Below, in pieces: positions 2,600 through 60,057 of a DNA stretch of 61,456 bases. Each line of letters begins with the position of its first letter. Positions within the stretch are counted from its first letter, which is position 1. The notes beneath the pieces were generated by a model. That model made no database searches, was not told the origin of the DNA, and saw nothing but the letters and a program-made list of their open reading frames with translations. A program made the translations under genes and the position numbers. This stretch comes from a bacterium (GTDB lineage: Bacteria > Patescibacteriota > Minisyncoccia > Phycocordibacterales > UBA9973), in NCBI GenBank assembly GCA_021831595.1, contig JAKBMK010000022.1, forward strand, positions 1-61,456, in the 5' to 3' direction.

Positions 2600-4324
2600 T
2601 TAAAAATTGTATATTTCTTGGAATGGAATAAGACCATCCATACTTTTAATTATAGCGTCTTCGCGCATTGTTATCATACCTCGAGATCTAGCTAACTTAA
2701 ATATTTCAGCTTCTTGTGGCCTTTTAAGTATTATATCCTGCATTTCTCTGTCTATTTTAAACATTTCATAAACAGGTACACGTCCAAGCATTCCAGATGG
2801 ACACTCTGGAGAAGATATAGCCTCATAGACGAAATCTTTATTTATATTGAGTTTTGATTTAAATTCATCTGGTAAACCAATAAAATGTTTCTCGAGCATG
2901 GCTTTTGTGGCACCTTCAATAGGAACTTTCTGTTTAGAATTTGGATGTATTTTACGAGCCAAACGTTGAGCAATACTTAGAACTAGTGTAGGAGCAATAA
3001 GGTAAGGATCGATACCCATATCTATAAGACGAGGAATTGCTCCAACAGCACTATTGGTGTGAAGTGTTGAGAACACAAGGTGACCAGTAAGAGCTGCCTG
3101 AATAGCGAGCTCGGCTGTCTCTTTATCACGAATCTCTCCTACGAATATTATATTTGGGTCTTGTCTTAAAATAGAACGAAGTCCTGAAGCAAATGTATAC
3201 CCTATCTCTGGTGCAACTTGAGACTGATTAATTCCATCTATATGATACTCAACTGGATCTTCGAGAGAAACAATGTTCTCTTTTTCATGATCGAGTTCAT
3301 TTAACATAGAGTAAAGAGATGTCGTCTTACCGGAACCTGTAGGACCCGTGATAAGTATAAGACCATAAGGGCGATTTATCGCTTCTCTCACAAGTGCTAT
3401 GTTCTCAGGAGACATATTCAAATCATCTAATGGCTTCACCCCTCTCTGAGAGTCCAAAATACGCATAACTATCTTCTCTCCATAATACGCTGGCATAGTA
3501 GAGACACGATAGTCGATCTTGCGTCCTTCAATCTTGGCAGAGAAACCTCCATCCTGTGGCTTTCTCTTTTCGTCTAGGCGAAGTTTGGAAAGAATCTTAA
3601 TACGAGCAACAACACCATTGTAGACAGCTATAGGCAAAATGAGAGATGTATGCAAAACTCCATCTACTCGAAAACGAACCTTTATTTTGTCCCCAGAATT
3701 CTCTATATGAATATCAGAAGCATTCCCTTCAACCGCGTGTCGCAATATAACAGCAACAATCTTGATAATAGGAGCATCTTCTGTTATTTTCTCTTCCTCT
3801 CTCCCCTTTCCATCCTTTTTGTCATCTTTATTTGCTTCGTCTACGTTAAAAGTAACATCTTGATCGAGCTCTGAAAGAGCTGAATCAACTTCACTACTCA
3901 ACACATCATATTTGCCAAGCAAATTGTTAAAAGTACTTTTGGCAATCAAATACAGCTTAAATGGTTTATTTAGTTTGGCGGTTATGAAGGTAAGGACATC
4001 TATGGCCTGAACATTTTCTGGATCAACAATTCCTATTTCTATTACATCATTAACTACTCCGATAGCTAAAAATTGATATTGTTTAGCTGTTTCTTCTGGA
4101 ATTATTTTAAGAATTGTAGAAGTCACAAGACTTGGATCTACTTTCTTAACAGGAATGTTAAAAATAGTTGATTTTAAATCAAGAATCACCTCTTCTTTAA
4201 CATTAAAAACAAGAAGAGCCTGGTCTATATCACCATTGTATTTATCTTCTGCTGTTTTAACGATTTCAGGAACTTGGTCTTCTCTTATAAGACCATGTTT
4301 TACTAATTCTTCTAATAGCATCAT
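2600..4324 (-). CDS. pilB: type IV pilus assembly ATPase PilB / GspE family
   Basis: 574 aa. Has an N-terminal T2SE_N-like domain, Walker A GPTGSGKTT, VGEIRD and TGHLVFSTLHTN. Confidence 0.9.
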   Translation of the reverse strand: MMLLEELVKHGLIREDQVPEIVKTAEDKYNGDIDQALLVFNVKEEVILDLKSTIFNIPVKKVDPSLVTSTILKIIPEETAKQYQFLAIGVVNDVIEIGIVDPENVQAIDVLTFITAKLNKPFKLYLIAKSTFNNLLGKYDVLSSEVDSALSELDQDVTFNVDEANKDDKKDGKGREEEKITEDAPIIKIVAVILRHAVEGNASDIHIENSGDKIKVRFRVDGVLHTSLILPIAVYNGVVARIKILSKLRLDEKRKPQDGGFSAKIEGRKIDYRVSTMPAYYGEKIVMRILDSQRGVKPLDDLNMSPENIALVREAINRPYGLILITGPTGSGKTTSLYSMLNELDHEKENIVSLEDPVEYHIDGINQSQVAPEIGYTFASGLRSILRQDPNIIFVGEIRDKETAELAIQAALTGHLVFSTLHTNSAVGAIPRLIDMGIDPYLIAPTLVLSIAQRLARKIHPNSKQKVPIEGATKAMLEKHFIGLPDEFKSKLNINKDFVYEAISSPECPSGMLGRVPVYEMFKIDREMQDIILKRPQEAEIFKLARSRGMITMREDAIIKSMDGLIPFQEIYNF

Positions 4325-12150: not shown

Positions 12151-13449
<1,299 letters not shown>

Positions 13450-13514
13450 TTAATTAATAATTTAACTTCGTAAGGTCATTTTAGCATAAAATGCCAATTT
13501 CCCGAAAACCAAAA

Positions 13515-13537
13515 ATCGTGAGGCCTTACCTCACGAT
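13515..13537 (-). terminator. rho-independent terminator
   Basis: ATCGTGAGG-cctta-CCTCACGAT: 9-bp stem overlapping the TGA stop of 13531-13935. TTTTT follows on the minus strand. Confidence 0.7.
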
Positions 13538-13935
13538 TTATTTTCTTTTTGATAATTCTTTATTAATTCTATATCCTTGAAATCCTTTTCTCTTCCCAGT
13601 GCAGTTTTGAATTTAATAAGCTCATTTAAATTCATAAAAGGAATCCCCTCTATAAATAAAGCACTAGATATTGCCTCTTCTACAGTAGTAGTATATTTTT
13701 CCCAATTTAACTGGGGAATAATATCAAAACCTTCTCTGTTAAGAAAAATTCTATTGTATTTTTCTACTTCTTCCCATTCACCAGCCCCTCTCATTTCATC
13801 AAATAATTTTTTTGTAACAGCTATATCTATATCCGAAGCTTTTCTTATACCTAATACATCAAGAACACTACCGGAAACAATCACATATTGACCTCTGGGT
13901 AAATTTAATTCTTTGATTTTGTTTATAATATTCAC
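13531..13935 (-). CDS. hypothetical protein, possibly nucleotidyltransferase-fold
   Basis: 134 aa. GSVLDVLGIRKASDIDIAV resembles the GS...DxD motif of minimal nucleotidyltransferases. The assignment is weak. Confidence 0.4.
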   Translation of the reverse strand: MNIINKIKELNLPRGQYVIVSGSVLDVLGIRKASDIDIAVTKKLFDEMRGAGEWEEVEKYNRIFLNREGFDIIPQLNWEKYTTTVEEAISSALFIEGIPFMNLNELIKFKTALGREKDFKDIELIKNYQKENKS

Positions 13936-15612: not shown

Positions 15613-15707
15613 AAGGACATTTTAGCATCTTTTTGAGAGTAAGACTAAGGTTTGTGGGTCGCTATGTGTAAATGCCAACAAATGCCAATTTTTGGTATAA
15701 TACGAAT

Positions 15708-16403
15708 ATGAAAATGACAGTCGGCGAATTAGTAGCAAAACAAATGAAAGAAGATAAGAGTTCTTTAACCCTACCAAATGGGCTTCTTCCTCCTGGGGCT
15801 AAAGAGGCTCTAGTATCGATTGCCGATATGAAGAAAAAGATAGAAGAACCACTTAGAAAACAACTTGAAATGGCAAAATTGGCATATGGTAGTATAGCTC
15901 CGCATTTAGATAGAATAGCTGAAATGAATAAGATAGTTCAAGAAAATTACATTATTCCACAAAGAAGGATTCAAGAAGTAAGAATTGTTAATTCTGAAGA
16001 ACTAGGAATCAGATCAAACAGAAAGGAAAATAATGTAGTTGTTGCATCATATCTGTTGCCTAAAAATGCTAATTGGGAAAGTTTAAGCATTCAATTTTTA
16101 GATGGGCATGTTGTTAATGTTTCTTATTCAGGAATGAAATCACAAAAGTTTGATTTTAAAGATATGGGCTTTATGAACATGAAGACGAACAAACCAGATT
16201 TAAAATGGGAATTACTCCGAGCAATTGCGGAAAATAGTGGAGCATTAACTAAGTCTAAATGGAACAGAAAATTTGGGCGAAACGTTAAATATGAACTCAA
16301 TGAGAGATTAAAGAAATTTTTTGGTATGGATTCAAATCCTATTTCTCACTACACTAAAAAAGGAGGATATCGAGCCACTTTTTCTCTCACAGAAGTTAAA
16401 TAG
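15708..16403 (+). CDS. hypothetical protein (first island gene)
   Basis: ORF 15672-16403 trimmed to the ATG at 15708, because TGGTATAAT (15693-15701) lies 6 nt upstream of it. No domain recognised. Confidence 0.55.
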   Translation: MKMTVGELVAKQMKEDKSSLTLPNGLLPPGAKEALVSIADMKKKIEEPLRKQLEMAKLAYGSIAPHLDRIAEMNKIVQENYIIPQRRIQEVRIVNSEELGIRSNRKENNVVVASYLLPKNANWESLSIQFLDGHVVNVSYSGMKSQKFDFKDMGFMNMKTNKPDLKWELLRAIAENSGALTKSKWNRKFGRNVKYELNERLKKFFGMDSNPISHYTKKGGYRATFSLTEVK

Positions 16404-16515
16404 TCATTGGGTGTTAAATGACGATAAAGGGACTTTTTCTTGTTTAAGTAAAAGTCCCTTTATATTTCAGCTATTTCTAATGTCTATTGAATAGAAATAA
16501 AAAGAAATTGTCATT

Positions 16516-17874
16516 TTGTCATTCAATGACGAATATGTTTTAGGGAAGAAGCTAAGAACCTTCCCCGAAGAACATATTATGAAAAAGCAAAAGTTAGTAT
16601 GGTCAGTTACTTCTCGTAAAGTAAGTGACTTAGTAAAAAACGGATACAATCCGAGAAAATTAGGTGAGGGTGAAAAAAGAGACTTAGAAAAGTCTATAAA
16701 GGAATTTGGAGCAGTAGTTCCTGTTATCCTTAATATCGGCTCTAGGTCTAATATTCTTATTGGTGGTGAACAGCGTGTAAAAGTCTATGCTGATCTTGGC
16801 ATAGAAGATGTTGAGTGTATGATACCTTCTCGAGAGTTAACATTAGAGGAAGAAAAAGAACTCAATTTGAGACTAAATAAAAACACTGGATCATGGGATG
16901 AAGAGCTTCTAAAAGAGTTCGAAATGGATATGCTTCTTAATGTTGGTTTTGGAGACGAAGAATTACAAAATCTTTTTGATGATGTAGATCTTGTTGAGGA
17001 TGATTTTGATATTGAAAAAGCTATTAAAGAAACCATTAATCCAAAAGTAAAAATTGGCGAGATATGGGAACTTGGAAAACATAGGTTGCTTGTGGGCGAC
17101 TCCACTGACATAACTTCTGTACAAAAGCTAATGGATAGTGACCTTGCAGACATAATCTACTGTGATCCCCCATATAACATTGGATTGGACTATTCAAAGG
17201 GTGTTGGTAATAAAGAAAAATATCAAGGTTCGTATTCTGCTAAAGATGACTCCAAAAAAGATTCTGATTACATGGATTTTTTAGATAAGAGTATGGAAGT
17301 AGCTAAAATCATAGCTAAGAAAAATTCACATTTCTTTTATTGGTCTGATTCTTCATATCTCTGGATGACTCAGGAATTATACAAAAAGAATGATATTCAA
17401 AATAAAAGAGTTTGCCTATGGTTGAAAAATAATCAGAATTGCACCCCTAAGATTGCCTTTAATAAAGTCTATGAACCTTGTGTTTATGGGGTTATTGGTA
17501 AACCTTATATTAACCCTAACATGAATAATGCCAATGAAATTCTTAATCAAGAAATAACAACCGGCAATCAAGCTCACGATGAGATACTTGAAATGATAGA
17601 TATCTGGATAGAAAAAAGAGACAGTGCTCAATCATATCAACATCCTACTCAAAAACCTGTCACCTTAAATGAAAAACCTCTTAAACGTTGTAGTGCACCT
17701 ATGCATATTGTATTCAGTGGCTTCGGTGGAAGCGGTAGTGATTTAATTGCATGCGAAGAACTTGGTAGATGTTGGCGTGGGGTCGAAAAAGATTTAATCT
17801 TCGCAACTATCATCATAGACAGATGGGAAAAATTTACCAACCTTAAGGCAAAGAAAATTTATGAAAATAAATAA
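16516..17874 (+). CDS. ParB/Srx-like N-terminal domain fused to an N4/N6 DNA methyltransferase (beta class)
   Basis: 452 aa. NPRKL...GAVVPVILN...LIGGEQR is ParB-nuclease-like. DPPYN (motif IV), HPTQKPV and FGGSGS (motif I) follow. An alternative ATG start at 16579 (MKKQKL) is at least as likely as the TTG at 16516. Confidence 0.85.
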   Translation: MSFNDEYVLGKKLRTFPEEHIMKKQKLVWSVTSRKVSDLVKNGYNPRKLGEGEKRDLEKSIKEFGAVVPVILNIGSRSNILIGGEQRVKVYADLGIEDVECMIPSRELTLEEEKELNLRLNKNTGSWDEELLKEFEMDMLLNVGFGDEELQNLFDDVDLVEDDFDIEKAIKETINPKVKIGEIWELGKHRLLVGDSTDITSVQKLMDSDLADIIYCDPPYNIGLDYSKGVGNKEKYQGSYSAKDDSKKDSDYMDFLDKSMEVAKIIAKKNSHFFYWSDSSYLWMTQELYKKNDIQNKRVCLWLKNNQNCTPKIAFNKVYEPCVYGVIGKPYINPNMNNANEILNQEITTGNQAHDEILEMIDIWIEKRDSAQSYQHPTQKPVTLNEKPLKRCSAPMHIVFSGFGGSGSDLIACEELGRCWRGVEKDLIFATIIIDRWEKFTNLKAKKIYENK

Positions 17875-18610
17875 AGGAGGAATCTATAAGGTTGGGAATC
17901 ATGTGATCGGGTGTGGTGATTCCACAGACCAAGTATTTGTGTCTAAGGTAATTGGAAAAAATAAAATACGAGCCATTATTGCTGATCCACCCTACGGTGT
18001 TGCGTATGTAGAAAATAAAAAAGGATTTGCAAAACTCGGTGTTAAAGATGAGAAAATAATTGCAGGCGACCATATCCAAAGTGAAGATGACTATGAAGAA
18101 TTCACTAGAAAATATCTAGGTGCAGTTGTTCCATATTTAGAAGAATATAATGCGTGTTACATATTTAATGCGGATCCAATGTTTCCATCACTTCGTATTG
18201 GTATGAAAAATGCAGGTTTTTATTACAGCCAAATGCTCATTTGGATTAAAAACCAACCTGTGATGAGTCGGAAAGATTACCTGTCGCAATATGAGCTCAT
18301 AGCATATGGATGGTTTGGTAAACATAAGACGGAAAGATCTAAAGCTAAAAATGTCATATATTATCCAAGACCAAATAAATCTAAACTTCACCCAACTCAA
18401 AAACCAATTGGTTTGCTTCGTAAAATTATTCCTGACAATACATCCATAGGAGATATTATTTATGATCCATTTTTAGGAAGTGGTTCTACTGCTATTAGTG
18501 CTGAACATTTAGGTCGAAAATGTATTGGTATAGAGATAGATGAGGGGTATGTATCTATTGTACTTCAGCGACTAGAAAAATTGACTGGAGATAAACCAGT
18601 TAAATTATAA
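17861..18610 (+). CDS. N4/N6 DNA methyltransferase (beta class)
   Basis: 249 aa. DPPYG, HPTQKPIGL and DPFLGSGST. Overlaps the previous gene by 14 nt. Confidence 0.85.
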   Translation: MKINKGGIYKVGNHVIGCGDSTDQVFVSKVIGKNKIRAIIADPPYGVAYVENKKGFAKLGVKDEKIIAGDHIQSEDDYEEFTRKYLGAVVPYLEEYNACYIFNADPMFPSLRIGMKNAGFYYSQMLIWIKNQPVMSRKDYLSQYELIAYGWFGKHKTERSKAKNVIYYPRPNKSKLHPTQKPIGLLRKIIPDNTSIGDIIYDPFLGSGSTAISAEHLGRKCIGIEIDEGYVSIVLQRLEKLTGDKPVKL

Positions 18611-18614
18611 ATGT

Positions 18615-18989
18615 ATGAACGAGGAAGACTTCACAAAAGATCCATACAAAAAACAAACATATGAGACATATGCTCTTTGGAAGTCCCTCCCTTCTTTTCT
18701 TAAAGGGCAACCAAGAGTAGCTCTTGAGAAATTTGGAATAAGCGAAGAAATAATATTTGATCTTTTATCAATAAAAACTCAAGCTGAATTTTCAAAGAAA
18801 TATTACATTGATGTTGGAACACTTACCGATTGGAATAAAAGATTAGAAAAAGATGGTCTTACTAAAGATATTAATAGTTGGGCTAGGAAGTTAACTCCAA
18901 ATGTTATCTTTGCTCTTTATAAAAATATAACCAAGAACGGCAGGGCTCATGAAGTGAGAGCTTGGTACGAATTAATTGAAAATAACTAA
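18615..18989 (+). CDS. small hypothetical protein with probable helix-turn-helix (terminase-small-subunit-like feel)
   Basis: 124 aa. AEFSKKYYIDVGTLTDWNKR looks like an HTH. Starts 5 nt after the MTase stop. Confidence 0.35.
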   Translation: MNEEDFTKDPYKKQTYETYALWKSLPSFLKGQPRVALEKFGISEEIIFDLLSIKTQAEFSKKYYIDVGTLTDWNKRLEKDGLTKDINSWARKLTPNVIFALYKNITKNGRAHEVRAWYELIENN

Positions 18990-18990
18990 T

Positions 18991-19185
18991 ATGGAAAACA
19001 TTAACTTAAATGAAATAAATACAATTCTCTCTGATACTCTTCGAAAAGTAATAAGTAAAGAAATATCGCTAAAGAAAGCAAGTATGATAGCAAAACTTGC
19101 CTCGACACTTTCAAAGAATATCGTGAATGTTGAATTGAAGGATAGAGTCGAATTTCTTGAACAAGCACTTAAAACAAGACGATAA
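18991..19185 (+). CDS. small coiled-coil hypothetical protein
   Basis: ORF 18976-19185 trimmed to the ATG at 18991 (MENINLNE...), 2 nt after the upstream stop. Confidence 0.4.
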   Translation: MENINLNEINTILSDTLRKVISKEISLKKASMIAKLASTLSKNIVNVELKDRVEFLEQALKTRR

Positions 19186-19188
19186 TAT

Positions 19189-20706
19189 ATGAAAAATCTA
19201 GCAAACATTTTAAGAAGATCTAACCTTTCTCCAAAAGAAAGAATTGTTACTATAATTCAAAATGAAGTTTATAAAGAAAAAAATGGCAAAGGAACTCTTA
19301 CTGAATCCGAAATCTATTCTTTGTCACAAGGATGGACACCAAAAGATTCTTATGAAGCTAAAGAATATAATAAATATTTGGAAGCATCTAAATTAGAAAA
19401 ATCTATGAGACTAGACGCACGAATGTTTGCATATAGATCAGAGAATTTATTATTAAGGAGTAATATATTAATCAATTATACAACATACTTAGAAAATACC
19501 TTGGATGATTTTAAGAAAAATGAAACCGTAAGTAGATATGTACCACAAGAAGAAATAATCAATTTTATAATGGAAAATACATATCTTTGTTACGATAAGC
19601 TAATTCATATATTTACTTTCAATAATCTTTCTATGAATATTAGAGACGACCTACTTCTTTTGGATGAGTATGCATCTTACGACAGTAAATATTTAGAAGA
19701 TGAAGTTTTTCTTTATGAGATATTTAATAAATCAACACCTTTGGATGCACAAAATAAAGATACTCTCATTAATCATATATTTTCTCGTATGTATAATGAT
19801 GGTTTTAGAAAAATAAAAAATGGGTCAGAAAAAGATGGTTTTATGTTATTGCATTCTTTCGCAGAACTTCCAATAAATAAAGTATTCGAGAAATGGGCTG
19901 AATATGCTCATATTAATCTTGATGAAAAAAATATCAGTACTGAAAATTATTTACTTAATAAATTTGAAGAATATTCAAAAGAAAAAAACCAAACGATGAA
20001 AATGATCGTAAAAGAGACGTTATCTAGATGGATAGATAATGGATTATTCGTATCCGAATATGCTCCTTTATTTTTTAGTAACAGAAAAGATACATGGAAT
20101 GGAAATGCAAAACTTACACATAAAGAAATTTTTACAAAATGGTATACAGAATTACAAAAGACAAAAACATTTATTGGCAATCTTGTTTCAGATGGAACTT
20201 TAGAAATTAAATTTATTGATAGAGAGATTTTCAGTACAATAGAAAAAATTAAGATTGTAACAAGCAAAAGTTTATATAAATGTAAATTGGATATTGATTT
20301 TGTAAAAGAATGTAAAGATCAAATGATGGTGTTATCACCAGTAGTAGGGTTATTTTTGTTTATAAAAAAGAATAATAATCCACTAGTAAACTACAAAACG
20401 CTGAAATCTTTTTGTGAAATAGCACAGATTTTTTCTGATATATTTGATATTGATATGACGGATAAATATTCAGAATCTTTGCAATCTTTTGAGCAAGAAC
20501 TAAATATGATAAATATTACTTTTAGCAAATTACTCGATAAGGTAAGTGGTCTTTTATATACAGATAAAAATATAAAGTATGTTTTAGAAATAAATGATGA
20601 TAATTTACTTTTTAATTTAAACGACAGATCGTCTCAAGTTGCAGATAGTATTATCGATGATTATAAAGGCGAACTTAAAAAGATGGGCTTCAGGACTGAT
20701 ATGTAA
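19189..20706 (+). CDS. large all-alpha hypothetical protein
   Basis: 505-aa uninterrupted ORF starting 4 nt after the previous stop. No motif recognised. Confidence 0.6.
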   Translation: MKNLANILRRSNLSPKERIVTIIQNEVYKEKNGKGTLTESEIYSLSQGWTPKDSYEAKEYNKYLEASKLEKSMRLDARMFAYRSENLLLRSNILINYTTYLENTLDDFKKNETVSRYVPQEEIINFIMENTYLCYDKLIHIFTFNNLSMNIRDDLLLLDEYASYDSKYLEDEVFLYEIFNKSTPLDAQNKDTLINHIFSRMYNDGFRKIKNGSEKDGFMLLHSFAELPINKVFEKWAEYAHINLDEKNISTENYLLNKFEEYSKEKNQTMKMIVKETLSRWIDNGLFVSEYAPLFFSNRKDTWNGNAKLTHKEIFTKWYTELQKTKTFIGNLVSDGTLEIKFIDREIFSTIEKIKIVTSKSLYKCKLDIDFVKECKDQMMVLSPVVGLFLFIKKNNNPLVNYKTLKSFCEIAQIFSDIFDIDMTDKYSESLQSFEQELNMINITFSKLLDKVSGLLYTDKNIKYVLEINDDNLLFNLNDRSSQVADSIIDDYKGELKKMGFRTDM

Positions 20707-20713
20707 AGCAAAT

Positions 20714-20753
20714 AACAATAAAAGGATGATTATATAATCATCCTTTTATTGTT
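20714..20753. terminator. bidirectional terminator (40-nt perfect palindrome)
   Basis: AACAATAAAAGGATGATTAT|ATAATCATCCTTTTATTGTT, between convergent genes. Confidence 0.8.
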
Positions 20754-20769
20754 AGATATTTACTCAAAC

Positions 20770-21756
20770 TTATTCCTTACTACCATCAGCGTAAATGATT
20801 GTTTTAACTTCCCATTTATACTTTAAATTAGTAAATTCTGTATCTTTCAATTTAACATCTTCATCCATAAATTGATTGTAGTCTATTCCTGATTCCCAAA
20901 CCTTACTTTGATGAGCAGGAATTGATTTATCATAACCAACACTTATTGCTTTAATTTTATTATCAAAAATATCATAAAAGGTTAAGACACCTTCTACTCC
21001 CTTAATATCTTTGTCTGTTTCATTGGTTAGTTTTAGATTCATTTGAATCTGATCTTGATAAGTGCCAGAGGTATAATCAGCTTCATAAAAACTCTTTTTT
21101 GTTACTTCAAGACTAACTTTATTTGCTTGAGTGCTTGGTGTTTGAGTATCTGTTTTAGTTACTCCTCCTTGTTGTAAACTTTTACTTAATTCTTCTTTTG
21201 CCTTAGCAACACTAGCAACATGTTTTGCTGTAGAGATTGAACCCATAATAATTGCTAATACAATTAATGCCACAATAGAAAGAATTACACCGTGTTTAGT
21301 TGATGAATTTTCTATTTGTTTTATACCTGATGCTTCTGCTTTTTTCTCATACTTCTTTGTAACTAAATGCATAATTATTCCTCCTGCAATTCCTACCATG
21401 AAAGCAATTATAGTAATAAATGTTCCACCAATGGCAGTTCCTATTGCACCACCCGCCTGTTCAAATTCATTAGCTGATGAAGAAATAACTTTTGAGCCAA
21501 TAACGAAAGTTAAAACTAATGCGGATACTGGAAGCAAGAAGAAAGAGATTTCTGTTAAACGAAAAAATCTTTCTAAAATATGATTCTTCTCCGTAAACTG
21601 ATAAACATTCCAGATCATTAAAATCCAGATAATTAAAAAACCTATACCCATATAAGAGTTACCCGTCATCCACGCATAATTTTGCCAAAAAATTAAAGCG
21701 GGTAACAATGCTAACAAAATCTTAAGAGACAAATGCTTTTTGATATTGTTTTCCAT
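20770..21756 (-). CDS. multi-pass membrane protein with C-terminal extracytoplasmic beta domain
   Basis: 328 aa. About 6 hydrophobic helices, a Gly-rich helix (GGAIGTAIGGTF), then a soluble C-terminal domain of about 120 aa. Confidence 0.6.
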   Translation of the reverse strand: MENNIKKHLSLKILLALLPALIFWQNYAWMTGNSYMGIGFLIIWILMIWNVYQFTEKNHILERFFRLTEISFFLLPVSALVLTFVIGSKVISSSANEFEQAGGAIGTAIGGTFITIIAFMVGIAGGIIMHLVTKKYEKKAEASGIKQIENSSTKHGVILSIVALIVLAIIMGSISTAKHVASVAKAKEELSKSLQQGGVTKTDTQTPSTQANKVSLEVTKKSFYEADYTSGTYQDQIQMNLKLTNETDKDIKGVEGVLTFYDIFDNKIKAISVGYDKSIPAHQSKVWESGIDYNQFMDEDVKLKDTEFTNLKYKWEVKTIIYADGSKE

Positions 21757-21782
21757 AGTTTCTGTTTTGCGTTTTATTTATA

Positions 21783-21937
21783 AAACCTAGTGATAAGACG
21801 CAAAAAGCCCACCACATAGGTAGTGACCGAAGTCACTCATATCCGTTTCCAGATACGGCAGATCGTGCGACCCCATATGATGGGTTCTTTATGCACGATC
21901 TGACTAACTTTCACCATGCCTTTATCACTAAAGGTTT
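21783..21937 (-). ncRNA. candidate structured RNA of unknown class (four-helix junction)
   Basis: A 14-bp closing helix joins 21783-21796 to 21922-21937. It encloses three hairpins: 21822-21837 (6 bp; the loop reads UUCG on the minus strand), 21843-21858, and 21861-21900 (8 bp plus an inner ACCC/GGGT stem). A minus-strand TATAAT lies at 21968-21973. Confidence 0.3.
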
Positions 21938-22041
21938 AGGCTACTTAAACTATTAACTTGTAAAGAAATTATACCTTATTTTTTAAGGTCGCACCATATT
22001 AGCTCACATTTAAGTATTTGTGTAGTCGAGTTATCAACAGC

Positions 22042-24495
22042 TTAATTTTGAGCGGTTTTATTTTTTGCTATACGTTTCTGGTGTTTCTTATCCCATTTTT
22101 TATGCCACTCTTCTTCCCAAGAAGGCAGGTTCAAATAGATTTGTTGTGTCGCATCACATACAGGCAACAAGCCAGTTATATGATCAAAATTTTTCTTCCA
22201 AGGTTCAGGCCAACAATGTGGGACACCAGGGAATTCTGTTAATTCAGTATTTGTAAGAACGAGTACCGGATTTATTGGTCGACTGTTTTTCCAATATTTT
22301 CTTCCTACTTTTGCGATTTTAGTTATATTTTTTATTTCATATGCAGTAAGTTCTTTTTTCATAGTACAAAATACAATAACGGCACCTGGAAACTTTTTAG
22401 CTAATCCGGACATTCTGTCAAAATCTTTCTTCTCAAAATCACTAAAGCTTTTACATTCAGCAAATAAAACACCGCTACAATCATTATTTCTGTTTGATTT
22501 TTGTTCCCAAAACCCAGCAAAATCAGCTTCCAGTTTTTTGCCTTCTTTGTCTGTTGCATTAAAACTAAAAACAGGAGAAAATTTTGTACCAATTAAGCTA
22601 TGCTCATTAAAGAAATTTACTCCGAGTAATACTGAAAATGCACCATCAGCATGTTGAGGAACACTGAAAGGTCCTGATGTTTTATAACTCCATGTTGAAA
22701 TATGTATGTTTCCAATAGCAGGAAAAGAATGAAGGCATTTAGGGCATACGCAAAGATCTTTAACATCATCAAGTTGATACCAAGATTTTCTAAAACACTC
22801 TGGGCATTCTATTTTTAGACCTAGCCTAAATATACCCTTTGATAAAAGATATTCATGTAAACTTTCGTCAGAACCTCCTCGACGGCTTTTGAGTTTGGCT
22901 TTTACTTTATCAACAGATAGATCTCTGCCTTCTTCTAGTTCAATATTGGTTGTAGCTTCATCTTTGTAAAGATTTTTCCCACCATTCATGTGGTCCAAGA
23001 CTTTTAATAAACTTTCATTTCCAAGAGTTGCAATATGACCGTCTAATTTATTATATATCTGCTTTGCAAGAACCCCTGGATTAGATAATTTAGAAACCCA
23101 CCCCTGGTCTTCCAGCCATGCGAAGAAAGTTTTTTCAGAAGTAGGGATATCCCAATATTCCTTAAGTGTATCTTTCACAAGATACACGAGACCATTTCTT
23201 CCAACTCTCCATTCGTTCCTAAAAGATCCCTGACTAGAAATAGCTCGAATAAACTTTTCACCAGTACTTCTAGGTAAAACTTCTGCCATATATTCATTTG
23301 AACCATAGAACCTAAAACTGATTTCGTTGGCGCAACACGGTTCACTATCCATACTTTTATCTTGTGTAAACTTTGGAAAGACTGGATTAAAATGAACTCT
23401 AAACTTCTCCATGTCTGTAATTTCTATGGAAGTTTGTTGTTCATATGTATCATTGGGGTCTGCACCATCATAGGCCCTGCCTCCACTCTCATCCCATATG
23501 CGTGGATACCAATGTTGTAAGCTAAAATAGCCAAATTTAGAAGTATCTTTCGGATCGTCAATTTTTACTGAAGATGCAAAAAAATTACTCATATCATCCA
23601 TGTCACAATTTCTGCCTCTAATTATAGAGACTACGTCAAATACGCCACGTTGATGTTTCCACTCATGCCTATTAGCTTTAATGAACTTAATCATTTCATC
23701 TTTTAGACTTTGATTGTCTCTTAATTGTTTAGGTAGAGGAAATACAGAACGTCCAAGGGCACGCAGATTCCAAAAATCTACAATATCCAAATGTTTTGAA
23801 GCATCAAAATAAAATACTGCTGCCTCTTTTCGGAAGCCAGAGTGTCTAAAGTGTTCAAGGTTTCCTTGTGTTGCTCGTCTAGGAAAAATATTATCTCCAT
23901 GGAAAAGATCACCAACCGAGGATAGGTCAATATCAATTTCTTTTATATCAAGCGGTTTGTAATAATTTTTTCTTAAAGCATCAAGAGTTTTGTCTGGGAA
24001 TTCACCGAAGATGCTTGCCCATAAAAGTGGATACTTGTTTGGTATTTTAGGAATAATAACCTTAACTGGATATTTGGGTTTATATTTAAAATGTATTTCA
24101 AATATTTCATTAAAAACATCAAAGATTCCGATACCAAAATGAGCTTTAAATGGACTACTGTAAACACCGTGTTGTTGCCAAATTTCATTAGGACTAATGA
24201 TTCTTAGTCCTGTATCTCTCACGAAAGCTGGAATCTCTTTTGAAAATTGAACAAGAATATCGGGGTCAAAGGAATCAATATATCCAAGAATAACTTTTTT
24301 AGGTTCTGGTGCTTTGATTGGACCTTCACGCCAAGTTTTGGGCATTTTCTTATACAGAGGAATAATTGGATTATAAACTCCTCCCCATAATGTGGAGCTG
24401 ATTTTAATTGCCTCACGAACTTGCTCCGGTGAATTTGGGTCAACGAGATAAGCAAGCTTTAGTGGTCTAACTTTTATATCAACTGTTCCTAACAT
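22042..24495 (-). CDS. large hypothetical protein with Zn ribbon and PD-(D/E)xK-like C-terminal region
   Basis: 819-aa ORF. Start moved to the third codon (ATG 24495) because a minus-strand TGCTAAAAT box (24502-24510) lies exactly 6 nt upstream of it. CPEC...(20 aa)...CPKC ribbon at about 22730-22820. EADFAG...VLFAECKSF (D...ExK pattern) at about 22450-22530. Confidence 0.65.
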   Translation of the reverse strand: MLGTVDIKVRPLKLAYLVDPNSPEQVREAIKISSTLWGGVYNPIIPLYKKMPKTWREGPIKAPEPKKVILGYIDSFDPDILVQFSKEIPAFVRDTGLRIISPNEIWQQHGVYSSPFKAHFGIGIFDVFNEIFEIHFKYKPKYPVKVIIPKIPNKYPLLWASIFGEFPDKTLDALRKNYYKPLDIKEIDIDLSSVGDLFHGDNIFPRRATQGNLEHFRHSGFRKEAAVFYFDASKHLDIVDFWNLRALGRSVFPLPKQLRDNQSLKDEMIKFIKANRHEWKHQRGVFDVVSIIRGRNCDMDDMSNFFASSVKIDDPKDTSKFGYFSLQHWYPRIWDESGGRAYDGADPNDTYEQQTSIEITDMEKFRVHFNPVFPKFTQDKSMDSEPCCANEISFRFYGSNEYMAEVLPRSTGEKFIRAISSQGSFRNEWRVGRNGLVYLVKDTLKEYWDIPTSEKTFFAWLEDQGWVSKLSNPGVLAKQIYNKLDGHIATLGNESLLKVLDHMNGGKNLYKDEATTNIELEEGRDLSVDKVKAKLKSRRGGSDESLHEYLLSKGIFRLGLKIECPECFRKSWYQLDDVKDLCVCPKCLHSFPAIGNIHISTWSYKTSGPFSVPQHADGAFSVLLGVNFFNEHSLIGTKFSPVFSFNATDKEGKKLEADFAGFWEQKSNRNNDCSGVLFAECKSFSDFEKKDFDRMSGLAKKFPGAVIVFCTMKKELTAYEIKNITKIAKVGRKYWKNSRPINPVLVLTNTELTEFPGVPHCWPEPWKKNFDHITGLLPVCDATQQIYLNLPSWEEEWHKKWDKKHQKRIAKNKTAQN

Positions 24496-24606
24496 AAACA
24501 TATTTTAGCAAAAAATGACCCTTAAATAAAGGCGTTTTAGTTATCAACTACTAGTACTCGGGACGCTCTGGACTCTTAGGGCTGGTTGCGTCATTAATGT
24601 AGGTAT

Positions 24607-25938
24607 ATGAAAATAGATAACCCAAATCAAGAGAAAGGAGTAGAAAAAATTAAGGTCGAACCAAAGAAGATCAGGTACTGTCTTTATGCGAGAAAATCAA
24701 CAGAATCAGAAGAAAGACAGGTTCTTTCAATAGACAGCCAAATCAGTGAAATGCTCCAATTAGCCGATCGTGAGGGGCTTGAAGTAGTCACTATGAAGCG
24801 TGAAAGCCATAGTGCTAAAGAGACTGGGCAAAGACCTGTATTTAACGAAATTATTGAAGAAATCAAACAAGACAAATTTAATGCAATCCTCACCTGGGCA
24901 CCCGATCGTATTTCAAGAAATGCAGGTGATCTTGGAAAAATTGTAGACTTAATGGATTCAGGAAAATTACATATGATACGAACCTTCGGACAAACATTTG
25001 GAAATAATCCAAATGAGAAGTTTCTCCTAATGATACTAGGAAGCCAAGCAAAACTAGAAAATGACAATCGAGGTATTAATGTGAAGCGAGGATTGCGAAC
25101 GAGAGTAGAGATGGGGTTATGGCCTGGGATGGCACCGCTTGGATATCTCAATCAAAAACTGATGGATAGGAAGTGCCAGATAGTAATTGATCCAGACAGA
25201 GCACCAATCATAAAGAAAATGTTTGAGAAAGTGGTATATGAACATTGGAGTGGTAGAAAAGTATATAACTGGTTACGATTTGATTTAAATTTCTATACTC
25301 GAGGAAATAAACCCCTGACACTATCAGGGGTTTATCGTATCTTTAATATGCCAATCTATTATGGACCATTTGAATACCCAAGAAATTCTGATAACTGGTA
25401 TCAAGGAAGTCATACTCCAATAATTACTCAAGAGTTATTTGAAAAAGCTCAAGCACAATTAAAGAGAGATAGAATTGTGAGAGAAAACAGAGAGTTTGCT
25501 TTCACTAAATTATTTACATGTGGAATGTGTAGCTCGGGAATATCTGCTCAAGAGAAGTACAAAGAACTTAAAGATGGAACTACCGCTAAATATGTTTACT
25601 ACTCTTGCTCAAAAGCGAGAGATCGAAATTGCAAAAATAAATATATTAGAGAAGAAGAATTGATAGATGAATTATTTAAAGTGATTGATAAGGTAAGTAT
25701 CAATGAATTAGGAATGAGAATCAAGCTTGAAGAAGAAATCAAGAGATTCAATCGACTTCAAAGATTGGCAACAAAAGGCACACCTAAATACTCAATAAAT
25801 GAGGATGATGTGAATACTAGAGAATACGCCAAGTATGTACTTAGAGAAGGCACACCACTTGAGAAGAGAGAACTACTTGGACATTTAAGGAGTAGATTGG
25901 TACTAAATGATAAGAAAATTACATTAATTGAAGAGTAG
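24607..25938 (+). CDS. large serine recombinase (resolvase domain + recombinase domain + zinc ribbon)
   Basis: 443 aa. YARKSTESEERQ catalytic-Ser region, ILTWAPDRISRN, GLWPGMAPLGY and CGMCSSGI...YYSC zinc ribbon. Confidence 0.9.
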   Translation: MKIDNPNQEKGVEKIKVEPKKIRYCLYARKSTESEERQVLSIDSQISEMLQLADREGLEVVTMKRESHSAKETGQRPVFNEIIEEIKQDKFNAILTWAPDRISRNAGDLGKIVDLMDSGKLHMIRTFGQTFGNNPNEKFLLMILGSQAKLENDNRGINVKRGLRTRVEMGLWPGMAPLGYLNQKLMDRKCQIVIDPDRAPIIKKMFEKVVYEHWSGRKVYNWLRFDLNFYTRGNKPLTLSGVYRIFNMPIYYGPFEYPRNSDNWYQGSHTPIITQELFEKAQAQLKRDRIVRENREFAFTKLFTCGMCSSGISAQEKYKELKDGTTAKYVYYSCSKARDRNCKNKYIREEELIDELFKVIDKVSINELGMRIKLEEEIKRFNRLQRLATKGTPKYSINEDDVNTREYAKYVLREGTPLEKRELLGHLRSRLVLNDKKITLIEE

Positions 25939-25970
25939 CAATTCAAAGTTGCATTTAATAAAGGTAGATG

Positions 25971-26001: not shown

Positions 26002-26304
26002 ATGAACAACAAAAAACAAAAAACATTTTTAGAGCAGTTAAAAGCATTGAGTGATAATACTCGACTCGATATTGTTTTATTTATCGCTTCCGGTGAAAAA
26101 TGTGTTTGTGATATATTTAAGCATCTAAAATTACCCCAAAATCTTATTTCCCACCACTTGGCAGTTTTGCGTAAAAATGAACTAATAATAAATCGCAAGG
26201 AAGGCAAATGGGTTCATTACTCCCTGAATAGAAAGAATTTTGAAAAGATACAAAAAAGCTTAGAAAAAATTATAAAAACAAAAGAAATAATATCAAAATG
26301 CTAA
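26002..26304 (+). CDS. arsR: ArsR/SmtB-family metalloregulator
   Basis: 100 aa. LSDNTRLDIVLFIASGEKCVCDI (metal-site CVC) and a wHTH (ISHHLAVLRKNELI). Confidence 0.85.
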   Translation: MNNKKQKTFLEQLKALSDNTRLDIVLFIASGEKCVCDIFKHLKLPQNLISHHLAVLRKNELIINRKEGKWVHYSLNRKNFEKIQKSLEKIIKTKEIISKC

Positions 26305-26327
26305 ATATTAATTTGAATAAACAAAAT

Positions 26328-26630
26328 ATGAATAAAAAAATTGTCATTTATGATCCGCCAATGTGTTGCTCAGCTGGTGTATGTGGTCCTAACCCAGACC
26401 AAACACTTATTAGCTTACAAGACACATTGGAAGAAGTTAAAAAGTTGGGTATAGAGGTTGAACGTTATCTTATTACACAAAGCCCCGAAAAATTCAAGGA
26501 AAATTCTGAGATTATAAAACTAATTCAAGGACAGCAACTAAAAGTATTACCAATTACAACTTACGAAGGAAAGATCGTTAAAACCGGTTCATATCCAACG
26601 CTTGAAGAATTTAAAAAGTTTATTAATTAA
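26328..26630 (+). CDS. arsD: arsenical resistance operon metallochaperone ArsD
   Basis: MNKKIVIYDPPMCCSAGVCGP carries the Cys12-Cys13-Cys18 signature. ORF 26298 trimmed to this ATG. Confidence 0.85.
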   Translation: MNKKIVIYDPPMCCSAGVCGPNPDQTLISLQDTLEEVKKLGIEVERYLITQSPEKFKENSEIIKLIQGQQLKVLPITTYEGKIVKTGSYPTLEEFKKFIN

Positions 26631-28486
26631 TGAAAAATAATATGAATACAAAATTTTATTTCTTTTCAGGCAAGGGCGGTGTAGGTAAAACAACAATGGC
26701 TGCTTCAAGCGCGGTATATTTTGCGGGTCTTGGAAAGAAAACTCTCATTGTTACCACTGACCCAGCTTCAAACTTAGCGGATGTTTTTGAGCAAAAAATT
26801 GGTCACAAGATTACAAAGATTAAAACAAATGAAAATCTCTTTGCGATGGAACTTGATCCGGATGTCGCTACGGCTGAATATAAAGAAAGAACGCTATCTC
26901 CGCTTCGTGGTTTGATTCCTGAGGAAAGTTTTGTAGTTCTAGAAGAGCAATTAAATTCACCTTGCACGGCAGAAATGGCCGCCTTTGATCGTTTTACCGA
27001 CTTTTTGCAAGAACCCAAATATGAAATAGTGATCTTTGATACTGCCCCGACTGGACACACCCTACGACTTTTGGAATTGCCAGTGGAATGGAGTGGTGTT
27101 ATAGAAAAGGCCGCTAAAGAAGGTGGTGGCGAAACCTGCATTGGTCCAGCCGCTGCTCTATCTGAATCAAAAGCTAAATTTGACCAAGCCATAGCAGCCA
27201 TGAGAGATACTTCCAGAACTACATTCGTTTTTGTCCTACGACCTGAAGTAACACCGATTTATGAGGCTGAGCGTTCTATTGCTGAGCTTTTAAAGCTTAA
27301 AATAACTTCACAAGAACTCATTATCAATGGCATTTATCCTCAAGATGTTTGTAATAATCCGTTTATGTTGGCGCGTTTGGCCAAACAGCAAGAATTTTTG
27401 GGAATTATAAAGAACAAATTTTCCATCCCCATTACTTTGATAGAGCTTGAACCAGGCGAAATCAAGGGTGAAAAATCGCTAATTAAAATGGGCAAAAAGC
27501 TTCACGAGCAAGCTCTAAAGTTAAAAGATTATCAGCCAGTAAAAATAACTATAGATAAGAGTAAATTTACGTTGGGCGATATTCCCAAAGTTGATGAGAA
27601 AATAAAACCATTACTTATTCCTCAAAATAGCAAAAGACGAACAATCTTTTTTGCTGGCAAAGGAGGAGTAGGAAAAACTTCAGTGGCAGCAGCAACGGGC
27701 TTGTGGATTGCTGAACAAGGTTATAAAACACTGCTTTTGACAACTGACCCAGCTTCTCATTTAAGCCAGATTTTTGAGCAGGATGTGAATGATAAGCCAA
27801 CTTTAATAAAAGGTGAAAAAAGTTTATGGGCTTGTCGAATCGATCCAGTTAAGGCGGTTGCCGAATACAAAGAGAAAATCTTAGTTGAAGCCAGACAAAA
27901 ATATGACAAACAAAGAGTAATTGCCATTGAAGAAGAATTGAATTCGCCCTGCACAGAAGAAATGGCTACTTTTGAGAAATTTATTGATTTTGCTACAAGA
28001 AAAGATTTTGAGGTTATCGTCTTTGACACTGCTCCAACTGGACATACATTACGACTTCTAGAATTGCCAGTTGACTGGAGCAAACAAATAGAAATCAAAA
28101 CTTTTACCTCAACTGGTGAAACAGAAATTGATAAAATTACCAAATCGCGTTTCAAAGAAGTCATTGATATGATACAGGACATCAATCAGACAACTTTCAG
28201 TTTTGTGATGTATCCTGAGTCCACTCCTATTGAAGAAGCAGCTCGGGCCATGGATGAACTTCTAGCTATTGGTGTTCCTACCAGTCTTGTTGTAGCGAAT
28301 TTCATCCTGCCAAAATCAATTATCACGAATGATTATCTAAGACAAAGGAAAACAATGCAAGAAAAATATCTAGTGGAAATGGAGAGACGTTTTACCTCTC
28401 CGATTGTAGAATTGCCACTTTTGGTCGATGATTTAATCGGCAAAGATAATCTTATGCTTGCTGGGCATATGCTATACGGAAAATAA
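26630..28486 (+). CDS. arsA: arsenite-stimulated ATPase ArsA (two homologous halves)
   Basis: 618 aa. GKGGVGKTT appears twice and DTAPTGHTLRLLELP appears twice. Confidence 0.92.
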   Translation: MKNNMNTKFYFFSGKGGVGKTTMAASSAVYFAGLGKKTLIVTTDPASNLADVFEQKIGHKITKIKTNENLFAMELDPDVATAEYKERTLSPLRGLIPEESFVVLEEQLNSPCTAEMAAFDRFTDFLQEPKYEIVIFDTAPTGHTLRLLELPVEWSGVIEKAAKEGGGETCIGPAAALSESKAKFDQAIAAMRDTSRTTFVFVLRPEVTPIYEAERSIAELLKLKITSQELIINGIYPQDVCNNPFMLARLAKQQEFLGIIKNKFSIPITLIELEPGEIKGEKSLIKMGKKLHEQALKLKDYQPVKITIDKSKFTLGDIPKVDEKIKPLLIPQNSKRRTIFFAGKGGVGKTSVAAATGLWIAEQGYKTLLLTTDPASHLSQIFEQDVNDKPTLIKGEKSLWACRIDPVKAVAEYKEKILVEARQKYDKQRVIAIEEELNSPCTEEMATFEKFIDFATRKDFEVIVFDTAPTGHTLRLLELPVDWSKQIEIKTFTSTGETEIDKITKSRFKEVIDMIQDINQTTFSFVMYPESTPIEEAARAMDELLAIGVPTSLVVANFILPKSIITNDYLRQRKTMQEKYLVEMERRFTSPIVELPLLVDDLIGKDNLMLAGHMLYGK

Positions 28487-56186: not shown

Positions 56187-56193
56187 ATATTTG

Positions 56194-56267
56194 TCCGTCC
56201 TCCACGACTCGAACGTGGGACCCTCGAGGTATAAGCTCGATGCTCTAACCAACTGAGCTAAGGACGG
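56194..56267 (-). tRNA. tRNA with anticodon UAU (Ile, AUA-reading) as read by hand
   Basis: CCGTCCT-TA-GCTC-AGTTGGTTA-GAGC-A-TCGAG-CTTATAC-CTCGA-GGGTC-CCACG-TTCGAGT-CGTGG-AGGACGG-A. Confidence 0.8.
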
Positions 56268-59666: not shown

Positions 59667-60057
59667 GGGGATGATCGGCTTCGATGAAGTGAATCATCTT
59701 ATATATGCATGTAGAGTACGGAGGTATCTCTTAAAACTTCTTCCAAAAGACTAAGTGCAAACAAAGTCGCTTCAGTAAAATCACCTTACGCTTTTGCGTT
59801 TTCTGGTTTTGCTCCTGCTTTCGCCTAATTTAGGCCAGAGCAGTGTCTACTCTCTCGACATCCGATGAAGAGAGTGGGCATAATTTATCGGGTTACGATT
59901 TTAGAACAGCTTGCTCTAAAATCCGACAATTTAAAGCTCGTTATTTATCTTTCTTATATATTCTCTAGGATAAATAGTTAAAACCCATGAATATATTAAA
60001 CATGTAGATTTCTATAAGATTTCTCTCCACACGCGGGTTCGATTCCCGCCATCTCCA
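59667..60057 (+). ncRNA. ssrA: tmRNA (ssrA)
   Basis: The 5' end GGGGATGATCGGCTTCGA pairs with the 3' end CATCTCC-A, including G3:U70. T-arm GCGGG-TTCGATT-CCCGC. Tag frame GCA AAC AAA ... GCT TTC GCC TAA at 59757-59828. Lies directly after smpB. Confidence 0.9.

Follow-up and report, generated by a model that had tools for sequence, protein, structure and literature searches.

The window analysed here is a 61,456-nt stretch of DNA (contig JAKBMK010000022.1 of GenBank assembly GCA_021831595.1) from a Paceibacterota bacterium of the candidate phyla radiation (CPR). The enolase encoded in this DNA is 93% identical to Candidatus Paceibacterota proteins and 86-87% identical to those of Ca. Nomurabacteria. 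On the minus strand of the window lies a gene for a protein of 819 amino acids (aa), which is cargo of an integrative island that also carries two DNA methyltransferase (MTase) genes and a large serine recombinase gene. A model-generated note made from the letters of this DNA (the original prediction) had described the protein as an orphan with a zinc ribbon and a D...ExK nuclease-like tail, and had proposed a restriction or effector nuclease paired with the two MTases. Our analysis suggests that the gene probably encodes a self-contained, single-polypeptide defence nuclease, which belongs to a large unnamed family and acts independently of these MTases. The gene was called as a single open reading frame (ORF), as had been predicted, of 819 aa from the first ATG and 817 aa from the second. 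It is listed below with its parts, in ORF residue numbering (numbering in the AlphaFold2 model is the ORF residue minus 1).

22042..24501, minus strand: ORF of 819 aa from the first ATG
24157..24501, minus strand: residues 1-115, predicted first alpha/beta lobe (model confidence about 90-96)
23497..24144, minus strand: residues 120-335, predicted second alpha/beta lobe
23146..23484, minus strand: residues 340-452, predicted beta-rich domain with no assigned fold class
22837..23139, minus strand: residues 455-555, predicted helical domain with conserved W462, S473, G476 and G488
22666..22836, minus strand: residues 556-612, predicted zinc ribbon with two CxxC knuckles on beta hairpins
22222..22665, minus strand: residues 613-760, predicted PD-(D/E)xK-type core, alpha-beta-beta-beta-alpha-beta
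22045..22221, minus strand: residues 761-819, predicted C-terminal helices with a conserved T785-Q786-Q-x-Y-L790 motif and a lysine-rich tail

These parts were delimited by secondary structure in the AlphaFold2 model, together with residue conservation in every case other than the beta-rich domain and with Foldseek matches for the core. The full-length model, built with a 49-sequence alignment, had a predicted local distance difference test score (pLDDT) of 83.4 and a predicted template-modelling (TM) score of 0.81, and a separate model of residues 1-555 (pLDDT 82.4) agreed with it. Conservation was read from 110 relatives that are 26-43% identical to the window protein. The residues invariant in this set are W39, D81, P333, the four cysteines of the ribbon and D660. 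By domain, the zinc ribbon and the nuclease core rank first, followed by lobe 1 and by a patch at D239-G250 in lobe 2, and the most variable stretches are residues 82-122, 262-322 and 502-542.

The C-terminal part looks like an active PD-(D/E)xK nuclease with a zinc ribbon before it, as judged from the alignment and the model. The ribbon motif CPECFRKSWYQLDDVKDLCVCPKC (CPEC...CPKC) spans residues 566-589 (window 22735-22806), and model strands surround both C566-x2-C569 and C586-x2-C589, all four cysteines being invariant in the 110 relatives. Thus, the four-Cys ribbon of the original prediction appears to be a genuine two-knuckle zinc ribbon, and sub-threshold zinc-ribbon matches to Pfam or NCBIfam models were found in 6-10 of 58 divergent family members. 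In the model, residues 614-750 form a helix, three strands, a helix and a strand (H620-629, E638-649, E655-666, E674-683, H690-702 and E707-712 in model numbering; pLDDT mostly 80-95). The segment EADFAG...GVLFAECK occupies residues 658-684 (window 22450-22530) and AVIVF is at residue 707. Strand 2 of the core carries E658-x-D660 and strand 3 carries E682-C-K684, which is the classical PD-(D/E)xK arrangement. D660 is invariant in the 110 relatives and its partners nearly so (E682, 99%; K684, 98%; E658, 98-99%; C683, within 93-99%), D660, E682 and K684 are all invariant in 46 genome-derived C-termini, and D693, E722, T750 and E753 of the core are also conserved. Such conservation places the ribbon and the D...ExK motifs far from chance. 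The nuclease-like tail therefore stood up as described, and the restriction-endonuclease-like core, for which a structure prediction had been proposed as the check, is present in the model.

The N-terminal two thirds of the protein are less readily interpreted. Lobe 1 has near-invariant R12-P13, W39-G40-G41-x-x-N44, G73-Y74 and P80-D81, with W39 and D81 themselves invariant. The best conserved patch of the whole N-terminal region, D239-x-x-D242-x-W244-N245-L246-R247-A248-x-G250, is in lobe 2. The beta-rich domain gave no match in the libraries searched. The helical domain is possibly winged-helix-like, judging by the model, and its segment at about residues 502-542 is variable and modelled with lower confidence. 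The original prediction had recognised nothing in the first 550 residues, and this impression was confirmed: no Pfam, PADLOC, NCBIfam, PHROG or PDB sequence match was found for them, and no significant Foldseek match.

Searches of the full-length model against PDB with Foldseek returned the CARF-nuclease Can2 as the best match (E 5e-4 to 1e-3, probability 0.80-0.89), followed by SfsA (E 0.06). TM-scores of the top matches were 0.16-0.28 over the whole chain, values that are low because the chains differ greatly in length. When residues 1-555 were searched alone, the Can2 matches were gone and nothing was found at E<=1e-3; therefore, the similarity to Can2 comes from the nuclease end. A CARF-type sensor, which the Can2 matches had brought to mind, was rejected, as the model of residues 1-555 gave neither a CARF nor a Can2 match. 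The viral fold database BFVD yielded no significant match, and the weak ones were again PD-(D/E)xK proteins (RPB5, UL24, RecE-like proteins and a restriction endonuclease). PDB searches with the single protein and with a 110-sequence profile gave no match beyond a spurious one to FKBP3 (E 0.5), and hhalign of the C-terminus against the HsdR N-terminal (HSDR_N) domains from the loci of relatives gave a probability of 0.2%, an uninformative value given the small and poor HsdR alignment. Taken together, topology and motif conservation give the predicted nuclease fold good support, and database similarity gives it only moderate support.

The best Foldseek match of residues 1-555 was the solute-binding protein MntC (E 2e-3), with weaker matches to GT-B glycosyltransferases, aspartate transcarbamoylase and periplasmic binding proteins. 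In our reading of the model, these matches indicate a generic two-lobed clamshell and nothing more specific. They bear on the idea that the two-lobed module is itself an enzyme, glycosyltransferase-like or nucleotide-modifying, which would make the protein either a dual-function enzyme that both modifies and cuts, or a factor for repair or processing. Acidic and aromatic positions that are invariant in the lobes (W39, D81, D239, N245, R247) and the weak likeness to glycosyltransferases, aspartate transcarbamoylase and solute-binding clamshells would fit this idea. However, all such matches are non-significant (E 2e-3 or worse, TM 0.27 or lower), neither Pfam nor NCBIfam has a match, no P-loop or S-adenosylmethionine-binding family was detected, and the patchy distribution and defence neighbourhoods described below speak against housekeeping repair. 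We consider an enzymatic N-terminal module improbable.

The protein is not an orphan, as it had been called. A word-indexed search gave 388 relatives at E<=1e-3 among the candidates scored, from Patescibacteria, Acidobacteriota, Desulfonatronum zhilinae and others; the best 120 of the 388 share 48-90% identity with the window protein and, with few exceptions, are full-length (~790-870 aa). An exhaustive profile search of 1.84 billion representatives found 3,030 clusters (50% identity) at E<=1e-3 and 798 at E<=1e-30, and among the matches listed almost all align end to end, with one fixed architecture of ~800 aa. A divergent protein from a B. barranii plasmid, which we had considered as a different architecture, was dropped as such, since it is a full-length member with the architecture kept. 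This constancy over ~3,000 clusters indicates joint evolution of the N-terminal module and the nuclease, as a single unit.

Among 185,579 species genomes (one genome per species) 126 relatives were found, in more than 15 phyla. These include many CPR lineages, Acidobacteriota, Alpha-, Beta-, Gamma- and Deltaproteobacteria, Nitrospirales, Planctomycetota, Verrucomicrobia, Poribacteria, Chloroflexota and Ignavibacteriota. One relative is in a Methanosarcinales metagenome-assembled genome (MAG), on a 5.8-kb contig for which mis-binning is possible. Members from CPR, Acidobacteriota and Desulfonatronum are ~50% identical. Because the family reaches so many phyla and occupies so few species, with such identity across distant phyla, it appears to be an accessory gene spread by horizontal transfer. 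Copy number is low (mostly 1-5 contigs per protein cluster). Two divergent paralogs, 52% and 30% identical to the window protein (loci L016 and L076; L labels denote individual loci of relatives), occur in one Candidatus Falkowbacteria MAG, bin.303. The 50,697 phage records searched contained no relative and 2 of 72,556 plasmids carry one, one copy being beside PrlF/YhaV and an Abi-family gene. Named carriers of the family include Photobacterium damselae (pWMD-P3-2, protein WP_341509620.1), Methylobacter tundripaludum SV96, Roseateles oligotrophus and Bradyrhizobium sp. Pha-3.

Relatives are called "hypothetical protein" in the naming sources and, for plasmid-borne members, in RefSeq. The window protein matched no Pfam, PADLOC, NCBIfam or PHROG model. 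The 58 divergent members had no significant Pfam or NCBIfam match; besides the sub-threshold zinc ribbon, their Pfam scan showed sub-threshold RAP (2 members) and DpnI (1 member) matches at E 0.02-0.09, and PADLOC gave two chance-level matches (E ~0.009). The suggestion of a possibly new family thus gains support, as no curated library searched covers it.

We then took a census of the two nearest called ORFs on each side of the family gene in 65 species genomes or loci (249 ORFs, scanned with Pfam), with 149 ORFs at least 6.5 kb away as the control. Immediate neighbours are enriched for restriction-modification (R-M) and defence genes compared with the control. Their families include ResIII (7 of 249), Methylase_S, SLFN_AlbA_2, SWI2_SNF2 and Eco57I (4 each), N6_N4_Mtase and N6_Mtase (3 each), and GmrSD_N, EcoRI_methylase and HSDR_N (2 each), as well as BrxL and Tsp45I; the control was headed by AAA, FtsH, ClpB, aminotransferases and generic methyltransferases, with one Methylase_S visible. 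Some of the individual contexts are operonic. At L007 the family gene (X) is inside a type I R-M operon, hsdS-124aa-X-hsdR; at L073 and L074 the order is hsdS-X-hsdM with 4-nt overlaps; at L086 it follows BrxL (BrxL-343aa-X-SLFN_AlbA_2); and at L013 the order is EcoRI MTase-GmrSD_N/HNH-X. Other copies are near Mrr_cat (L011), near MazEF and HepT/MNT (L012), in a region like an integrative and conjugative element (ICE) at L010, and in a tRNA-flanked islet of a Patescibacteria MAG beside a type IIG-like MTase and a serine recombinase (L009). Embedding in such clusters has been used to predict defence genes, with seven systems confirmed and 145 candidates now in PADLOC (10.1101/2024.01.29.577857). 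The original prediction had also raised the case that homologs might be housekeeping genes; they proved to be patchy accessory genes, often near R-M systems and mobile elements.

Two observations concern these loci more generally. Just upstream of the R-M operon of L007, a group I intron match (55 bits) adjoins a tRNA match (2776-2976 and 3042-3120). The ICE-like region of L010, with a tyrosine integrase, TraG-like genes and a relaxase, also holds a Gasdermin_protease-domain gene at 12240-13688.

It might be asked if the protein is an auxiliary subunit of type I R-M systems, with no independent function. Type I R-M or HsdR-like components are found within two genes at 11 of ~74 distinct loci, and the arrangement is operonic in three to four. 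However, ~85% of loci, the window included, have no adjacent type I R-M genes, and the arrangement varies (between S and R, between S and M, after R-S). In addition, TgvAB, a type IV system embedded in a type I R-M operon of Vibrio cholerae, acts independently of HsdR (PMC11411939). A role as a type I subunit is therefore highly unlikely in our estimate. No constant partner emerged: none was present in the nine annotated contexts, and all-against-all BLAST of the neighbours revealed no conserved small upstream partner or antitoxin, the only clusters being R-M subunits (HsdR-like, HsdS, HsdM) and SLFN_AlbA_2 proteins. The 124-aa ORF of L007, tried as a shared partner, is unrelated to the 124-aa ORF of the window.

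In the window, the gene shares its island (~15630-25941), bounded on the right by the recombinase, with the following features; the last entry is outside the island.

leftmost gene of the island, plus strand: 243-aa ORF
16516-17874, plus strand: ParB-MTase
17861-18610, plus strand: N6/N4 MTase, 249 aa
to the right of the N6/N4 MTase, plus strand: 124-aa ORF, then 505-aa ORF
between the 505-aa ORF and the LOOT RNA, minus strand: 328-aa ORF
21822-21942, minus strand: LOOT RNA (Rfam RF03000; 74 bits, gathering score 46.4)
24502..24510, minus strand: TGCTAAAAT, an extended -10-like box by consensus resemblance, 6 nt upstream of the second ATG of the 819-aa gene
24607-25938, divergent from the 819-aa gene: large serine recombinase
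26002-28486, plus strand: arsR-arsD-arsA arsenic-resistance cluster, just outside the island on the side of the recombinase

The second ATG (Met3, at 24495) is most likely the true start, because in the closest relatives, L001 and L002 (protein 90% identical), AGG replaces the first ATG of the window and the protein has 817 aa. The original prediction had also called the start leaderless, which it may be. Between the divergent 819-aa and recombinase genes are 105 bp, in which TGCTAAAAT does stand 6 nt in front of the second ATG, and L001, the only sequence compared here (88% identical), has TGATAAGAT-N6-ATG at this place. A consensus promoter scan made no call at the site, and the missing leader signal is not distinctive, because a Shine-Dalgarno-like motif of 4 nt or longer occurs within 20 nt upstream of only 4 of 42 window ORFs of at least 150 aa. 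Starts in this AT-rich window are typically preceded by A/T-rich sequence, e.g. AATT, and translation initiation in the host organism seems to be largely independent of Shine-Dalgarno pairing.

Comparison with L001 was informative about the island. The block of recombinase, 819-aa gene and LOOT RNA is 88.5% identical in DNA and the MTase module 76.5%; in protein, the recombinase is 98.9% identical and the members of the MTase module (243-aa ORF, ParB-MTase, N6/N4 MTase, 124-aa and 505-aa ORFs) are 67-94% identical. Between the two shared blocks and beyond the recombinase, L001 has other genes, including at the place where the window has arsR-arsD-arsA. Because the recombinase is nearly unchanged, the MTase module more diverged and the middle segment swapped, these comparisons indicate modular exchange within one element family. 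No convincing attachment-site repeats were found for the window island.

The same comparison bears on the proposal of a classical R-M system, in which the protein would be the restriction endonuclease and the ParB-MTase and the 249-aa N6/N4 MTase its cognate methylases. The nuclease-like domain, the common island and the recurrence of the combination in L001 are all compatible with it, as is a ParB-MTase near the homolog in L022. The gene had been said to face the MTase operon, which is only loosely correct. The genes are convergent, but 3.4 kb separate the gene from the closest MTase gene, whose end is at 18610, and the 124-aa, 505-aa and 328-aa ORFs and the LOOT RNA lie between. In L001 this interval holds other genes. 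We ran the co-occurrence check that had been suggested, and relatives of the window MTases were within 10 kb of the homolog in L001 (the same element) and L022, with weak cases in L053 and L089, that is, 2-4 of ~85 distinct loci; the N6_N4_Mtase family makes up 3 of the 249 nearest-neighbour ORFs. Solitary homologs exist in Desulfonatronum and Terracidiphilus. Moreover, the best matches of the MTases are to methyltransferase families of phages, phrog_498 among them, and the two may be orphan enzymes of a phage or mobile-element type. Both the co-occurrence counts and the swapped interval of L001 led us to reject the pairing, and a classical R-M pair has a very small probability in our assessment. 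Since L001 shares the two blocks with different genes between them, the gene and the MTases appear to be fellow passengers on one type of element.

Another connection might be with the mobile element itself, for which the protein could serve as an accessory factor of the recombinase (in integration, excision or target choice), as a maintenance or addiction nuclease, or as a self-mobilising homing-type nuclease. The gene divergently adjoins the large serine recombinase in both the window and L001, and is in the same small tRNA-flanked island as a recombinase in L009. Relatives of the recombinase are within 10 kb of the homolog at ~7 distinct loci, tRNA genes are directly upstream of the family gene in L005 and L009, and L010 is ICE-like. 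However, a related recombinase is missing from more than 90% of loci, and the R-M operons in which the gene is embedded have none at all. Copy number per genome is low, and the counts in phage records (0 of 50,697) and plasmids (2 of 72,556) do not suggest an element function. Solitary copies (L003, L005) have no terminal inverted or direct repeats around them. We view service to the mobile element as unlikely. An insertion sequence or self-mobile gene was rejected by the lack of flanking repeats at L003 and L005 and by the small number of contigs per cluster. Four disrupted copies were seen, three with insertions of 1.2-2.8 kb (L040 10001-13583, L051 10001-13973, L047 5985-11188) and one with a frameshift (L030 9998-12381). 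The insertion in L040 contains a 435-aa ORF on the opposite strand.

The LOOT RNA is encoded on the strand of the 819-aa ORF, 100 nt downstream of it, and has a terminator-like hairpin at its 3' end (21826-21809), and the window and L001 (12554-12674) copies differ by compensatory changes in three helices. Among 90 loci of relatives, LOOT was found in the CPR loci L001 and L009/L015 only. In L009 (15037-15157) it is beside the serine recombinase rather than the family gene, and L120 has a copy at about 2659-2835 with neither family gene nor recombinase. A tie between LOOT and the 819-aa gene was ruled out on this distribution, the L009 placement and the L120 copy. A 16-base LOOT pattern matched 27 stretches in viral contigs, of which none was confirmed by the LOOT nhmmer profile.

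Three other features of the window were noted. The 505-aa and 328-aa ORFs converge on a perfect 22-nt palindrome with overlapping arms (20713-20754), which probably terminates transcription in both directions. At 56193-56267 on the minus strand is a gene for a tRNA-Ile whose anticodon, TAT, is unusual in bacteria, which mostly use a modified CAT anticodon. A transfer-messenger RNA gene at 59667-60058 on the plus strand encodes the tag ANKVASVKSPYAFAFSGFAPAFA.

Having considered these alternatives, we return to the reading of the gene as a self-contained, single-polypeptide defence nuclease. In its favour we count the strong constraint on the putative catalytic and zinc-binding residues, the modelled core and its Can2 matches, the fixed architecture with its patchy spread, the lack of a conserved partner, the R-M and defence neighbourhood with its embedded copies, and the disrupted, paralogous and plasmid-borne copies. 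The effector would be the C-terminal third, in which the four-Cys zinc ribbon precedes the PD-(D/E)xK core and D660, E682 and K684 would hold the catalytic metal and water. The N-terminal two thirds, with the two alpha/beta lobes and their highly conserved surface, the beta-rich domain and the helical domain, would form a sensing or targeting module that controls the timing or the target of the nuclease. As there is no co-inherited methylase, discrimination of self would have to come from the target or from gating. In the first case, the nuclease would recognise a feature missing from host DNA, in a modification- or structure-dependent manner as in type IV enzymes. In the second, it would be off until an infection cue is bound, in a manner similar to Shedu or abortive infection systems. 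The island copy and the recombinase gene are transcribed divergently. A more specific version is that the 555-residue module is an undescribed sensor, which binds a phage DNA feature or a small-molecule cue in a cleft lined by W39, D81, D239, N245 and R247 and allosterically switches on the nuclease; we offer this tentatively, as it is rather less likely than not.

Several points weigh against a defence nuclease, however. Nuclease activity, a DNA substrate, the sensor role and a defence phenotype are all inferred, and the substrate could be RNA rather than DNA. The fold assignment depends on a predicted model with modest Foldseek scores (TM 0.16-0.28), and no sequence profile ties the domain to a curated PD-(D/E)xK family in Pfam, in PDB or by hhalign with HsdR. 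No known modification-reading or nucleotide-sensing domain was detected with Pfam, in the window protein or the 58 members, or with Foldseek. The neighbour census is semi-quantitative, being based on top-25 family counts and crude ORF calls; ~85% of loci are without an R-M component within two genes, and several copies are among housekeeping genes, as the solitary ones of Desulfonatronum and Terracidiphilus.

If the reading is correct, a single gene of 2.5 kb would provide a widespread defence against phages or plasmids, with ~3,000 clusters in more than 15 phyla and possibly in an archaeon. If, in addition, the 555-residue module is the sensor tentatively described above, the family would be a new single-protein immune system that works even in minimal CPR genomes. 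A sensing region without structural precedent could then reveal a new way of recognising infection. Defence finders miss the family, probably owing to its rarity in cultured RefSeq genomes, and the island copy in a Paceibacterota genome would add to the sparse knowledge of CPR immunity. For annotation, the case illustrates that a nuclease near methylases need not mean an R-M pair.

Several known systems resemble the family in part. Type II restriction enzymes diverge rapidly. With a classical type II endonuclease the window protein would share the PD-(D/E)xK-type core with D...ExK, whereas it has no conserved adjacent methylase, is ~800 aa long and has a 555-residue non-catalytic region that is 26-50% identical across phyla. 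Shedu (SduA, DUF4263) is a single-gene defence in which the PD-(D/E)xK nuclease is C-terminal and the sensing or regulatory part N-terminal, the same single-gene build as is proposed here. However, neither the window protein nor the 58 members have a DUF4263 Pfam match or a PADLOC Shedu match, and the N-terminal architecture is fixed across the family rather than variable. The full-length model has its best structural match in Can2/Card1 (PDB 8q41, 8q42, 8q44; E 5e-4, probability 0.87-0.89), in which an N-terminal alpha/beta domain controls a C-terminal PD-(D/E)xK nuclease with ExK within one polypeptide, a control that we propose for the window protein as well. The window protein differs in being twice the length of Can2/Card1 and in having a zinc ribbon and two further domains. 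It showed no sequence similarity to Can2/Card1 in PDB searches, and cas or type III CRISPR genes were absent from the nine annotated contexts and from the top families of the 249 neighbours.

The embedded HEC/PDC candidates (Payne et al. 2024, PADLOC-DB v2) are similar in that an uncharacterised gene is nested in type I R-M or BREX clusters, but the window family is not among the PADLOC models, to which the 58 members gave the two matches at E ~0.009 mentioned above. Type IV enzymes (Mrr, MspJI, GmrSD/BrxU/TgvAB) differ in that no SRA, EVE/PUA, DUF262/GmrSD_N, Mrr_N or McrB-N domain was found in the window protein or the 58 members by Pfam or in the top Foldseek matches. They are alike in being nucleases without a cognate methylase, often inside or beside type I R-M or BREX loci, as is TgvAB (PMC11411939), and a GmrSD_N/HNH gene is the immediate neighbour of the family gene in L013. 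The N-terminal region of this family is without precedent in the libraries searched, and the kind of protein that we propose, a stand-alone defence nuclease, is already known.

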